Below the pieces are notes generated by a model. The model ran no database searches. It was not told the origin of the DNA and was given only the letters and a program-made list of their open reading frames with translations. This document shows positions 23,707 through 64,000 of a DNA stretch of 64,000 bases, piece by piece. Made by a program: the position numbers and the translations under genes. Source of the DNA: an uncultured bacterium (GTDB lineage: Bacteria; Krumholzibacteriota; Krumholzibacteriia; JACNKJ01); contig CAVOFT010000001.1 of the NCBI GenBank assembly GCA_963695095.1, positions 1,536,001 through 1,600,000 on the forward strand, in the 5' to 3' direction. Positions within the stretch are counted from its first letter, which is position 1, and the number at the start of each line of letters is the position of its first letter.

Positions 23707-24360
23707 GTGCACGATTCCCGCAAGACGGCGCGGCTGGCTAGCTTGCTGGCGCCGCTGGTTCTGATTCTCTCCCTGCCGGTGGGCAGCTTCGCTCAGGTGC
23801 TGCTCAACGAGGTGCTCGCCGATCCGATCACCGATTGGTCCGGCGACGGCATCATCGACTTCAAGAACGACGAATGGATCGAGATCGCCAACGGGGGCGC
23901 CGCTCCCGTGGATCTGGCCGCCTACTGGCTCTCCGACTCGGGCGCGGACCCGGCGGTGCGCTATCGCTTCAGTGGCAGTCTGGCGCCGGGGGCGGCCCTG
24001 GCCGTCACGGGCGCCATGGCCGTGGCCTGGCAGGCGGAGACCGGAAACGGCAGCGCCGGCCTGAGTCTGAACAACTCGGGCGGCGAGGTGGCCCTCTATC
24101 GCGACGAGGGCGGCGAGGCCGTGCAGGTGGACCTGGTCGCCTACACCAGCTACCAGATGGACGACGATCGCAGCCTCGGCCGCTTTCCCAGCGGCACCGG
24201 GGAGTGGATCCTCTTCGACGGTCTCAACCTCTACCACGGCAACCAGGAGCCGGGCTCGACCGGCTGCCTGCCCACCCTCGGCCAGGCGAACGTCTGTGCG
24301 CAGGTGCCGGTGGGCGAGGCGTCCATCGGGCAGGTCAAGCAGCGCTACGGCGACAAGTAG
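23707..24360 (+). CDS. Secreted lamin-tail-domain protein with short C-terminal motif
   Basis: GAGGAGG RBS; signal peptide; LNEVLADP, DEWIEIAN, LNNSGGEV, SLGRFP; ends VPVGEASIGQVKQRYGDK. Confidence 0.82.
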   Translation: MHDSRKTARLASLLAPLVLILSLPVGSFAQVLLNEVLADPITDWSGDGIIDFKNDEWIEIANGGAAPVDLAAYWLSDSGADPAVRYRFSGSLAPGAALAVTGAMAVAWQAETGNGSAGLSLNNSGGEVALYRDEGGEAVQVDLVAYTSYQMDDDRSLGRFPSGTGEWILFDGLNLYHGNQEPGSTGCLPTLGQANVCAQVPVGEASIGQVKQRYGDK

Positions 24361-29551: not shown

Positions 29552-29593
29552 GGCCTGGCGCGCGGCGCCGACCGGTATTGAGTTGCCTATCCG
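29552..29593 (+). repeat. oriIS-like end, copy 2
   Basis: GGCCTGGCGCGCGGCGCCGACCGGTATTGAGTTGCCTATCCG; same orientation as copy 1. Confidence 0.72.
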
Positions 29594-29796
29594 CACGAGC
29601 CGGCTCGCCTCGAGGCGGCGCAGCGCCGCGGACCCAGTGTACACGTGTACAATCCGCGCTTCCGGCCCGGCCCAAATCGAAGCGGCCGGGGGTCGTCCCG
29701 CAGCCGCCCGCGTTCCCAACCCTCCCCAGCTTTCCTGCCAGGCGGTCGCGACTGTGCTACAATTACCAGGAACCGTCGGGCAGGGGGAAGATCGCG

Positions 29797-31766
29797 ATGA
29801 AGCTCCGGCCGGCCATGCTCACGCTGCTGCTCTTCGCGTCCGCGGCCACCAGCGAGGCCCAGAACTGGCAGGCGGACGATGGGCTCTTCAACCCCAGCGG
29901 CATCCCCTCGCTGGCCTTCTCGCAGCCGCGCCTGGCGGATCTCGACGGCGATGGCGACTTCGATCTGATCCTCGGCAGCATCGACGACGCGCCGCTGTAC
30001 TTCGAGAACATCGGCACGGCCGCCAGCCCGGCCTTCGCGCCCGGCGGCGACATCCTCGCGCCCATCGATCCGCTGGACGCCGAGATGGCCGTCGCCGGCG
30101 ATCTCGACGGCGACGTCGACCTCGACCTCGTCACCGGCGGCTACCTGGGTCTGCAGCTCTTCGCCAACGTCGGCGATGTCGCACGCCCCGGCCTTCGCGC
30201 GCGTCGACGGCTTCTTCGCCGGCCTGCAAGCGGGCTCGATCCCCGTGCCGACCCTCGCCGATCTCGACGACGACGGCGATCTGGATCTACTGGTCGGGCT
30301 CAGCGAAAGCGGTCAGCTCAAGTACTATCCCAACCTGGGTTCGCCGACCGCCGCCGTCTTCACCGAGGCATCGGCCGCGACCTGGTTCGACGTGGGTCTG
30401 TACGCGTATCCGTGCTTCGCCGATCTCGACGGGGATCTCGATGTCGACCTGCTCTCCGGACGCGACGAGCACGGGTTCGTCTACTACCGGAACATCGGCG
30501 ACCCGGCGGCGTGGTCCTGGCAGAACGACGACGCGGTCTTCGCGGGCCTCGGCGGGGTGACGTACTGGAACTCGCCCTGCCTGGCCGACCTCACCGGCGA
30601 CGGCCGCCTCGATCTCGTGTACGGCACCGACGCCGGGCCCCTGCAGTACTACGTCAACACCGGCAGCCTTGCAGTGCCCGTCTGGACAGCCAACACGAGC
30701 CTGTTCGGCGGCGTGCTCGACGTCGGCGGGGCCAGCTCGCCGTTCTTCTACGACTTCGACGGCGACGGCGACCTGGACCTGGTCAGCGGCAGCCAGCTCG
30801 GCGACATCAAGTACTACGAGAACATCGGCACCGTCGCAGCGCCGGCCTGGCGTCGCCGACCACGCGTACTTTGCGAGCATCGATCACTCGATCTACTCGG
30901 CCATCACGCTCGGCGACGTCAACGACGACGGCCTCGCCGACGCCGTCGTCGGCGACCTGAACGGCCAGCTGTTCTTCCACCCCAACACCGGCAGCGGCTT
31001 CGGCTACGACGGCAGCGTCTTCGCGGGCGTCGACCTCGGCGACTGGTCGGTGCCGCGCTTCGTGGACATGGATGGCGACCTCGACCTCGACCTCGTGGCC
31101 GGCAACGAGGCGGGTCAGCTCAGCTACCTGGAGAACCAGGGGACCCTCGCCGCGCCGGTGTGGGTTGTCGTCCCCGGCTACTTCGGCGGCCTGGACGTGG
31201 GCAGCAACTGCTCGCCGACCCTCGGCGATTACGATCACGACGGCGACCAGGACCTGATCACGGGCAACCTCTCGCACGCGGTGCGCTACTTCGCGCACGA
31301 GGGCGCGAACTGGGTGGAGGACGCCAGCGTCGTCGCCGGGATCACCGCCGGCCAGAATGCCGCGCCGGCGCTCGCGGACCTCGACGGCGACGGCGACCTC
31401 GACCTGACGATCGGCAACTACGCCGGCACCTTCAACTACTACCGCAACCTGGGCCCGCCTACGGCCGTGCCGGATGCGGACGTGGTGGCGGCCAAGCTCG
31501 CGCTCGCCGCGTATCCCAACCCGTTCAATCCCTCCACGACGCTGCGCTTCCGACTGAGCACACCCACGACCGTCCTCCTCGCGATCTACGATCTGGCCGG
31601 CCGGCAAGTCCGCACCCTGGCGGTGGGCAAGCTGCCGGAGGGCGACCATGCGGTGAGGTGGGACGGCCGCGACGAGAACGGCGCGCTGCTGAGCTCGGGC
31701 GTCTACTTCGGGCGTCTTCGCGCCGGCAAGGACATGCGCACGGCGAAGCTCGTGTTCGTCAAGTAA
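29797..31766 (+). CDS. Secreted FG-GAP/VCBS repeat protein with FlgD-Ig (T9SS-like) C-terminal domain; apparent frameshifts near 30180 and 30850
   Basis: Signal peptide; about ten D-x-D-G-D-G-D-x-D-L repeats across three frames; YPNPFNPSTT...IYDLAGRQVRTL...WDGRD...SGVYF tail; extended -10 TGCTACAAT at 29755. Confidence 0.85.
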
Positions 31767-31838
31767 TCTCCTGCGCGCAGGCCGGGCTGTGTTGCAGGGC
31801 GAGCACCATGACCTCGGACAGGTCGCTATCTGCTTTCT

Positions 31839-31970
31839 GCTCAGGTCCGCCGCCGCGTGCTTGCCTGGCCGGTCCGGCACCACCACCTGGAGCCCGAGGC
31901 CGTGGCCGCCATGCTGGCCCGGCGGCAGCCCGACGGGGGGTTCCCCTTGCTGGATGCGGCATTGCGTTTG
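31839..31970 (+). pseudogene. Decayed internal fragment of a second IS91-family transposase
   Basis: Translates AQVRRRVLAWPVRHHHLEPEAVAAMLARRQPDGGFPLLDAALRL, matching 27889-28015 (AQVRRRVLRWLARHGYLEPEAV/ATMLAWRHSGGFSVDASVRL), about 29/44 identical by hand. Confidence 0.85.
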
Positions 31971-32102
31971 TACTTAACATTCGGGTCCGAAAGGTGGTAA
32001 TATAGCTCGACCTAATTAGGTGCGCCCAGTGCGTGGTTCGTCTCCAGGACCACCCACGCGAGGGGCAGCTACTGGCATCATGATCAATATGGGAGGTTGA
32101 GT

Positions 32103-32582
32103 ATGCGCATCGTTCTCGCGACTCTGCTGATTCTGATGACGGCCAGCGTCGCCATGGCCGACAAGGACCTCTATCGCTACTGCGAGCCCTGCGTGGGCGT
32201 CCAGGGGACGCTCTCCCCTACCGCTAGTTGGCAGGTCCAGTCCGGTTACTACGCCGGCGACGACAACATGGCCTTCTACTTCTGCGCCGTGGGCGGCGAG
32301 ACCTACACCTTCACGTTCTGCCAGGGCGGTGGGTCCGCGAGCTACGACACGGCCCTGTCCATCCAGGGCCCTGATGGCTGCGGCAGCTACCTCGCCTGCA
32401 ACGATGACTTCTGCAGCCTGCAGTCCGAGATCATCTGGGTCGCTCCGGCCGACGGCACCTACATCGTCGCCGTGGACGGCTACAGCACCTCTACGGGCAA
32501 CTTCGATCTGGCCTACATGGGCACGCCCTGCACGACCCCGACCAAGGAAGAGTCCTGGTCGGTGATCAAGAGCGCGTACTAG
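32103..32582 (+). CDS. Small secreted Cys-rich protein, PPC (pre-peptidase C-terminal)-like domain, with short C-terminal motif
   Basis: GGGAGG RBS; signal peptide; YDTALSI...ACNDD.C.LQS.I....GTY.V.VDGY; ends TPTKEESWSVIKSAY. Confidence 0.8.
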   Translation: MRIVLATLLILMTASVAMADKDLYRYCEPCVGVQGTLSPTASWQVQSGYYAGDDNMAFYFCAVGGETYTFTFCQGGGSASYDTALSIQGPDGCGSYLACNDDFCSLQSEIIWVAPADGTYIVAVDGYSTSTGNFDLAYMGTPCTTPTKEESWSVIKSAY

Positions 32583-61987: not shown

Positions 61988-62530
61988 ATGCGCAAATTGC
62001 TAGTTATTGCTCTCGCGGCGGCGATGTGCAGCTTCGCCGTTTCGGCGTCCGCCCAGCTGATCGACCAGAATCAGCCCAGCGGCGTCACCTACATGGCCGG
62101 CTTCTCCCAGGGGGATCTGGCCCAGTCGTTCATGCAGACGAATGCCAACATCTCGGGCGCCGGGATCCTGCTGCAGAGTGGGATCGGCACGTCGGATACG
62201 GTCACGATCTCGCTGTGGAACCTGCTGCCGAACCAGGCCGGCGCCGTGATGCTCGCCTCGGCGAGCGCCACGGGCACGGCGGGGCAGTGGGTCGACGTCT
62301 TCTGGGGCCTCGTTCCCATCGCGCCGGCGACGACTTACTACCTGGTCTTCACGGGCAACACGACGCTGGGCATCGCGGGCGACACCAGCAACCCCTACGC
62401 CTTCGGGCAGGTGTACGCCAACCCGGGCTACCAGTCCTGGCCGACCTTCGACTACGCTTTCCGCACCTACTACAACGATGTGACGGCGACCGCGCCCAAC
62501 AGCCTCTCTTCGATCAAGGCGCTCTACTAG
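61988..62530 (+). CDS. Small secreted beta-sandwich protein with short C-terminal motif
   Basis: GAGGTG RBS; signal peptide ending ASA; LAQSF...WVDV.W...YYLVF...DYAFRTY; ends TATAPNSLSSIKALY. Confidence 0.8.
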   Translation: MRKLLVIALAAAMCSFAVSASAQLIDQNQPSGVTYMAGFSQGDLAQSFMQTNANISGAGILLQSGIGTSDTVTISLWNLLPNQAGAVMLASASATGTAGQWVDVFWGLVPIAPATTYYLVFTGNTTLGIAGDTSNPYAFGQVYANPGYQSWPTFDYAFRTYYNDVTATAPNSLSSIKALY

Positions 62531-63557: not shown

Positions 63558-64000
63558 ATGAAACGCATTACCCTGGTCGCAATCACCCTGGCCGCCCTGG
63601 TGCCGGCCCTGGTCGGCTGCCAGTTCCTCTTCACTCCGGACAGCGAGGAGGCAAGCCCCAGCTCCGCGCGTCGTCGAGATGCCCGCGGCGGCGCCGCTGC
63701 CCGCCGCCGGCGCCCTCGAGGCCGCCCTGCTGCGCTTCCATGTTCGCCAGGCGAGCAACCAGTGGCTCTACCTGCACCGCGTCACGGCGCCCTGGACCGA
63801 GCAGAGCGTCACCTGGAACAACTTCGGCGCGGCCTACGACCCCTCGCCCATCGATTCCGTGCTCGTCGACGCGGCGGGCTGGTTCGAATTGCCGCTGACC
63901 GAACGGGTGCTCGCCTGGGGCACGGGCGCCGAGAGCTACCATGGCTTGCTGCTGCGCCACGGCGCGCTGGCCACGCCGCGCAGCGTCATCGACAGCCGCG
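63558..64000 (+). CDS. Lipoprotein with DNRLRE/CBM96-like domain (partial, frameshift near 63658; absent from the ORF track)
   Basis: MKRITLVAITLAALVPALVGC lipobox; next frame reads ALLRFHV...LHRVTAPWTEQSVTWNN...YHGLLL; runs off the window. Confidence 0.72.
   Translation, partial: MKRITLVAITLAALVPALVGCQFLFTPDSEEASPSSARRRDARGGAAARRRRPRGRPAALPCSPGEQPVALPAPRHGALDRAERHLEQLRRGLRPLAHRFRARRRGGLVRIAADRTGARLGHGRRELPWLAAAPRRAGHAAQRHRQP

Follow-up and report, generated by a model that had tools for sequence, protein, structure and literature searches.

A strictly C-terminal 15-residue tail on unrelated Sec-exported proteins of Krumholzibacteria and allied phyla: a candidate sorting signal in the position of the type IX secretion domain

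Introduction

The LPXTG/sortase, PEP-CTERM/exosortase and GlyGly-CTERM/rhombosortase systems rely on tripartite sorting signals, each a C-terminal tag that numerous unrelated exported proteins in a single genome have in common. The same holds for the 15-residue tail described here, which ends three unrelated exported proteins (A, B and C) encoded in a 64,000-nucleotide stretch (positions 1,536,001 to 1,600,000 of contig CAVOFT010000001.1, assembly GCA_963695095.1; 'the window' hereafter) from an uncultured bacterium whose lineage is placed by database names in Candidatus Krumholzibacteriia. Unlike those signals, and as a first-pass annotation of the window had noted, the tail has neither a transmembrane helix nor a basic cluster, only 0–3 residues following its core, with no hydrophobic stretch, so that one would not expect a membrane-embedded transpeptidase like theirs.

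Among the closest described systems is that of type IX secretion (T9SS), whose signals of types A, B and C are all described as domains of ∼100 residues (PMC10202324), with PorV reported as the shuttle for type A signals and PorP/SprF as the shuttles for type B (PMC12618676). Akin to the tail, the type A C-terminal domain (CTD; TIGR04183/PF18962, FlgD-Ig-like) stands at the extreme C-terminus of Sec-exported proteins behind a T-[TA]-[AG]-V junction, has a conserved Lys shortly before the end and finishes hydrophobic-hydrophobic-(basic); neither occurs outside T9SS lineages, and one can replace the other within protein families. As opposed to this CTD of ∼80 residues, the tail lacks the beta-sandwich, the NPFNP and GxY motifs and any hidden Markov model match, occurs on small proteins only and is nearly absent from four genomes that bear SprA. 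Short C-terminal stretches do matter in type IX secretion: the last 13 CTD residues and the lysines of motif E are reported to be required, and green fluorescent protein to be secreted with the last 22 residues of HBP35 from Porphyromonas gingivalis alone, in a T9SS-dependent manner (PMC10202324), while export of RgpB is reported to be blocked when its two C-terminal residues are missing, and a Lys to be conserved in CTD strand beta-7 (PMC11285876). Like the tail, the HBP35 signal is a short C-terminal stretch with a conserved Lys, but it consists of the final strands of a genuine CTD, obtained by experimental truncation, whereas the tail is natural, separately conserved and different in sequence. 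We found no description of the tail in the literature on the motif, on T9SS in phyla of the Fibrobacterota-Chlorobiota-Bacteroidota (FCB) group, or on secretion in Eisenbacteria, Latescibacteria or Krumholzibacteria.

Results

The tail is a modular, strictly C-terminal tag

All three open reading frames (ORFs) of the window that the first-pass annotation had quoted were confirmed to end as it described (Table 1), and their N-termini are all signal-peptide-like. The tail of C is a degenerate member in which the W is replaced by I; canonical tails are present in orthologues of C, and in its family 72 of 110 homologues pass the tail profile at most 6 aa from their end (∼100 by eye). Protein A has kept the tail in 12 of 15 homologues, and a fold search with its body returned PliG and pre-peptidase C-terminal (PPC) domains. 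None of the three proteins matched an NCBIfam model at E≤1, and Pfam gave nothing beyond the lamin-tail domain (LTD) body of C.

Table 1. Positions of the tail-bearing genes, their tails and the T9SS-type CTD in the window.
Feature	Position in window	Strand	Evidence or remarks
Gene A, exported protein, 161 aa	32097..32582	+	ORF; signal peptide, PPC/PliG-like beta-sandwich (residues ∼30-143), tail
Tail of A, TPTKEESWSVIKSAY then stop	32535..32579	+	Tail profile 29.6 bits
Gene B, exported protein, 180 aa, no known family	61988..62530	+	ORF; without Pfam/NCBIfam family
Tail of B, TATAPNSLSSIKALY then stop	62483..62527	+	Tail profile 26.6 bits
Gene C, exported LTD protein, 217 aa	23707..24360	+	ORF; Pfam LTD body match
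Degenerate tail core of C, then GDK and stop	24304..24348	+	Tail profile 18.2 bits
T9SS type A / FlgD-Ig-like CTD of an FG-GAP repeat protein ending at 31766	31503..31724 (C1:1567503-1567724)	+	CTD part of PorU model; ORF 30669..31766

The genome (3.64 Mb in 2 contigs, 70% GC, 2962 called genes) yields 34,410 six-frame ORFs of at least 50 aa, a search space of 5.9 million residues. With a 21-residue profile built from 42 tails, 65 of these ORFs were found to end in the tail, 61 of them among the called genes, so that the tag marks ∼2% of the predicted proteins here. Its confinement to the C-terminus is nearly complete: at 14 bits or more, 60 sites lay at most 3 aa from a stop and 2 elsewhere, a looser regular expression for the core gave 44 sites at most 6 aa from a stop and 8 elsewhere in the six-frame ORFs, and the exact expression proposed in the first-pass annotation matched 13 C-termini and no internal position in the called genes. 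The motif reaches well beyond the three window proteins, and its frequency is far above chance.

The consensus reads T-[TA/P]-[AG/V]-x-x-x-[ST]-[WF]-[GS]-x-[IV]-K-[SA]-L-Y-stop, and a typical tail protein consists of a body that often ends in Cys, a flexible linker starting T-[TA]-[AG]-V, a 9-residue core ([ST]-[WF]-[GS]-x-[IV]-K-[SA]-L-Y) and 0–3 trailing residues, which are absent in the organism's own family and usually an Arg in other lineages. All 42 tails of the profile have the Ser and the Lys, and 40 have the Tyr; the Lys is also invariant in a separate alignment of 49 sequences. The hydrophobic residues of the core are spaced i, i+3 and i+6/7, and the core may form a two-turn amphipathic helix.

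The bodies that precede the tail are diverse. After removal of the last 22 residues, the 61 tail proteins fell into 38 clusters unrelated by BLAST, the largest of which (12 members) is a right-handed beta-helix family, and 27 of 37 cluster representatives gave no Pfam match at E≤0.01; matches of the rest were to Beta_helix/Chlam_PMP, PD40 propeller, PPC, LTD, MAM-like, DUF7901, Laminin_G_3 and plastocyanin-type cupredoxin families. Tail proteins are small (median 224 aa, maximum 460 aa) and enriched in Sec signal peptides, which a crude heuristic test found in 35 of 43 tail genes but in 1093 of all 2962 genes (Fisher p 2e-9). When every start codon was tried, the figure rose to 57 of 61 tail genes (1577 of 2962 in the background, by this lenient count), most of the misses being mis-called or broken starts. 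A Cys lies 5–14 residues upstream of the core in 26 of the 61 tail genes, which fits disulfide-closed exported domains. The tail itself is covered by no NCBIfam model (34 cluster representatives), and no T9SS CTD match was obtained when tail proteins (37 representatives and the 3 window proteins) were compared with Pfam and NCBIfam. A search of the ESM Atlas with the tail part returned no usable match. Some bodies weakly match 'choice-of-anchor' NCBIfam families and one passes the DVUA0089 cut-off; members of these families elsewhere carry signals of the tripartite type. Two individual tail proteins deserve mention: that at C1:2927730-2928404 has a lipoprotein-type signal peptide (…LLAGC) and may be held at both ends, and that at C1:1069292-1069702 is a plastocyanin-type cupredoxin, a kind that is usually periplasmic.

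Taken together, the tail is a modular, selected and strictly C-terminal tag on unrelated exported proteins, and it is conserved across phyla, as set out below.

Tail and T9SS CTD occupy the same slot

The genome encodes between ∼87 (strict regular expression) and 105 proteins with a type A, FlgD-Ig-like CTD (median length 591 aa), and the tail and this domain never occur together (0 of 61 tail genes with a CTD). They nevertheless share a junction. A T-[AGP]-[VTA] triplet starts 16–20 residues before NPFNP in 43 of 83 CTDs, as compared to 2.6% of control windows, and the junction triplet is found in 39 of 61 tails; in the window itself, a P-T-A-V junction precedes the CTD listed in Table 1 just as it does in the tails. 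Both the mutual exclusion and the common T-A-V-like start had been suspected from the window alone, and both hold genome-wide.

Protein families in which the two endings alternate provide additional support for a shared position. Beta-helix paralogues align up to a '...GC-x-[LV]-T-[AG]-[AV]-E' junction and thereafter continue into either the tail or a CTD. Similarly, in a body family with a cohesin-like fold (150 best representatives from a library of 1.84 billion proteins), 109 members bear the tail and have a median length of 191 aa, 17 bear a CTD and are multi-domain (median 1294 aa), and the remaining 24 are fragments plus ∼8 degenerate tails. This interchange at a common junction, together with the absence of any overlap, places tail and CTD in one slot, with protein size predicting the choice: small single-domain proteins carry the tail and giant ones the CTD.

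The shared linker could in principle also arise if the tail had no function at all and were the remnant of truncated CTDs, or if it were a by-product of nucleotide repeats. We regard this as barely credible: codons of the tail vary freely among copies while the residues are kept and the stop position is fixed, the invariant Ser and Lys depart from the CTD consensus at the aligned positions, and conservation of the tail spans phyla and exceeds that of the bodies.

The tail is predicted to be detached from the body

AlphaFold2 modelled protein A with a confident body and a disordered tail (predicted local distance difference test, pLDDT, <50), whereas for a protein of the cohesin-like family, modelled with a 75-sequence alignment, it gave an equally confident body fold and a tail helix from W184 to L190 (pLDDT ∼62–66) after a coil linker; in both proteins the tail was detached from the body. 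Of the short amphipathic helix assumed in the first-pass annotation, there remains a weak prediction for one tail, while the tail of A, for which it had been proposed as well, is modelled as disordered. These predictions, disorder or a 7-residue helix, are far from the Ig-like beta-sandwich of ∼70–100 residues with motifs A–E that defines a CTD, although tail proteins share with CTD proteins the Sec signal peptide and the occurrence with T9SS core genes. The sole invariant columns of the 75-sequence alignment, whose mean column identity is 28%, are one Phe in the body and the Lys of the tail. A free tail with an invariant Lys has the appearance expected of a peptide that is read in trans.

PBP5-type and MinD membrane-targeting anchors are short terminal amphipathic helices with aromatic and Lys residues, as in the tail, and W, K and Y are typical residues of membrane interfaces. 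The tail might therefore be a docking or retention peptide whose amphipathic helix, with W/F, I/V, L and Y along one face and Lys in addition, keeps the protein attached to a membrane leaflet, to peptidoglycan or to a surface scaffold in the manner of a miniature dockerin, without driving transport. The helix predicted at residues 184–190 behind a free linker would suit such a peptide, as would the cohesin-like fold of one tail family, the 3–4 copies of the module in giant CTD proteins, the usually periplasmic kinds to which some bodies belong, and the variation of the residues after the Tyr, which indicates that the free carboxylate is not what is read. We nevertheless consider docking without transport unlikely. 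The sequences of PBP5- and MinD-type anchors are poorly conserved and not common to dozens of unrelated proteins, unlike the near-invariant core of the tail; the near-invariance of S/T, K and Y over dozens of unrelated proteins in three phyla exceeds what generic membrane binding needs, and the exclusion of the CTD and its replacement by the tail would be left unexplained. The comparison with cellulosomes has similar limits: dockerins, like the tail, are a common C-terminal tag on many different secreted proteins, and cohesin-like modules are present here, but a dockerin is a folded calcium-binding module of ∼70 residues, unlike the tail, and the cohesin match is modest (template modelling score 0.5–0.67). 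The cohesin-like family was rejected as a general receptor of the tail, since it was not found in 5 Eisenbacteria genomes, the tail-rich one included.

As side observations on this family, the cohesin-like fold was recognised in the tail proteins of C1:2529256-2531368 and relatives, and giant CTD proteins (730–1750 aa) contain 2–4 copies of the module in a scaffoldin-like layout.

In other bacteria, PDZ proteases are established readers of C-termini, and an exposed, unstructured tail with a hydrophobic end could likewise serve a periplasmic tail-specific (S41/PDZ-type) protease as a degron or as a signal for maturation, in quality control or activation. A ligand of this class is expected at a fixed distance from the free carboxylate, whereas 0 to 6 residues separate the core from the carboxyl end, depending on lineage and family; the tail genes have no linked protease gene, and it is not evident why unrelated families amounting to ∼2% of the proteome should share a degron. 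Such a role is accordingly quite improbable. The beta-signal of outer-membrane proteins, in which alternating hydrophobic residues and a terminal aromatic one close a beta-barrel, was also considered and rejected, the bodies being small soluble beta-sandwich, beta-helix or propeller domains, the hydrophobic residues following the i, i+3, i+6/7 spacing and most lineages ending in Arg.

The tail is conserved in at least three phyla

Similar tails in related candidate phyla, as suggested in the first-pass annotation, are indeed found. In the organism's own family, the pattern with the Tyr directly before the stop gave 5–54 matches per genome in 12 of 12 genomes, as compared to 0–1 for a reversed-pattern control. 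When one extra codon before the stop was allowed, matches appeared in 187 of 201 sampled genomes of the phylum, typically 5–50 in each and mostly LYR-stop. The ending is thus lineage-specific, the own family using LY-stop and most others LYR-stop. Three genera without pattern matches (g9, g16 and g20) carry variant tails with 2–3 trailing residues (e.g. LYKE, MYTE, LFGGR), and it is for this reason that phylogenetic profiling within the phylum failed.

Beyond the phylum, the tail is present in 34 of 41 sampled genomes of the Eisenbacteria phylum (33 of 40 without one unpublished genome) and in all 12 genomes of a third, small phylum. When 185,579 species genomes were scanned with a pattern free of the stop, at least 80 loci were recovered; among the 80 matches listed, most come from metagenome-assembled genomes (MAGs) of Eisenbacteria and Krumholzibacteriota, and the stop follows the Tyr after 0–3 codons in 74 and after exactly one residue in 62. 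With tens of copies per genome across at least three uncultured phyla, the tag is carried by a large and unannotated part of the proteins that they export, and it would offer annotators a simple rule by which to flag exported or surface proteins in Krumholzibacteria, Eisenbacteria and allies. MAGs labelled Methylomirabilota and Verrucomicrobiia gave 16 and 20 tail matches, with near-identical tail proteins; since both have SprA, these labels look wrong.

T9SS genes and the neighbourhood of tail genes

The genome encodes a PorU sortase adjoining PorV, a SprA translocon and 7–11 barrels of the PorV/PorQ family, and SprA scored above the cut-off in 12 of 12 tail-bearing genomes examined. The GldM model found no match in this genome, but none in any control genome either. 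Tail genes adjoin CTD genes in 4 cases, no more often than chance would have it (3.5 expected), and form clusters only among themselves. CTD-family genes lie near 20 of 51 tail loci against a rough expectation of ∼11.

Two loci with PorV-like barrels were noted in passing. A possible operon at C1:295872-299374 comprises a 1980-aa exported protein, a PorV-like barrel, an ORF of 256 aa and a tail protein of 260 aa; no other tail gene was seen directly beside a PorV-family gene. At C1:2391353-2402049, a PorV-like barrel (C1:2395474-2396406) has as its neighbours two ORFs of 137 aa, ExbD/TolR-like by eye, and large exported proteins are encoded there as well.

A possible route through or beside type IX secretion

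In light of the shared slot, we propose with a probability of about 0.45 that the tail serves as a modular and linear sorting tag, which works through the T9SS or beside it and gives small cargo a minimal substitute for the CTD. Sec export would deliver the tail protein to the periplasm, where a component of the envelope would read the exposed tail in trans. This reader would most likely be part of type IX secretion or feed it, and the small protein would be passed across or onto the outer membrane, so that the tail would serve small single-domain proteins as the 80-residue CTD serves large ones. The invariant Lys of the tail may parallel the near-invariant and functionally important Lys of CTD motif E. 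The CTD position in question is K or R in 82 of 87 CTD proteins here, and the conserved CTD Lys is reported to be almost invariant, functionally important and in contact with PorV, as the one conserved contact (PMC10994853).

Several observations weigh against this proposal. The folded CTD is reported to be bound by PorV loops and the SprA cavity via a large, plastic and mostly hydrophobic surface, and its conserved motifs to specify chiefly the fold (PMC10994853); a peptide of 15 residues cannot copy a large folded surface. The tail Lys is also one position closer to the C-terminus than its CTD counterpart. Some bodies are of usually periplasmic kinds (cupredoxin, TolB-like propeller, PliG-like fold), and the genome contains two secretins, by which a type II route could operate. 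At the 51 tail loci, no non-CTD family, machinery included, is found repeatedly within a distance of 3 genes, and the co-occurrence with SprA is weak evidence because all tail lineages carry a T9SS anyway. Finally, four genomes of the Eisenbacteria phylum (G355, G358, G359 and G360) have SprA and only 0–1 weak tail matches, counts that depend on how complete these genomes are. Copy number of the PorV family does not account for the difference and was rejected as a correlate of the tail, with 8–9 genes in the four tail-poor genomes against 8 in a tail-rich relative. A T9SS may thus be necessary for the tail but, given SprA in the tail-poor genomes, it is not sufficient.

That these genomes retain SprA and the full PorV-family count could also mean that the tail belongs to an independent sorting or processing system, with its own receptor or protease unrelated to the T9SS, the junction merely marking the end of the passenger. 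The core motif has no counterpart in the type A, B or C CTDs as these are described in PMC10202324, and its conservation in at least three phyla suggests one conserved reader. We find an independent system doubtful, since no candidate gene for it lies within 3 genes of the tail genes at the 51 loci, a T9SS is present in every tail-bearing genome examined, and tail and CTD are swapped at the same junction within protein families.

A more far-reaching and more tentative reading is that the tail represents a fourth kind of type IX signal or a wholly separate sorting route. A natural linear tag of 15 residues would then suffice, in several uncultured FCB phyla, for small folded proteins to be delivered across the outer membrane or onto it, the reader being a conserved factor missing from the four tail-poor Eisenbacteria genomes. 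The tail-poor genomes turn the search for the reading machinery into a concrete comparative task. If the proposal is true, the tail would be the smallest known address label for sorting after Sec in diderm bacteria, and T9SS lineages would use more than folded CTDs.

Other features of the window

The FG-GAP/VCBS-repeat protein with the T9SS CTD (window 29578-31766, + strand) is split over three overlapping ORFs (29578..30960, 30176..32005 and 30669..31766), and its frames suggest two frameshifts, from a pseudogene or from indels in the assembly. At the distal end of the window (63679-63999, + strand), a fragment of an exported protein, its ORF still open at the window end, contains what we take to resemble a DNRLRE-type domain.
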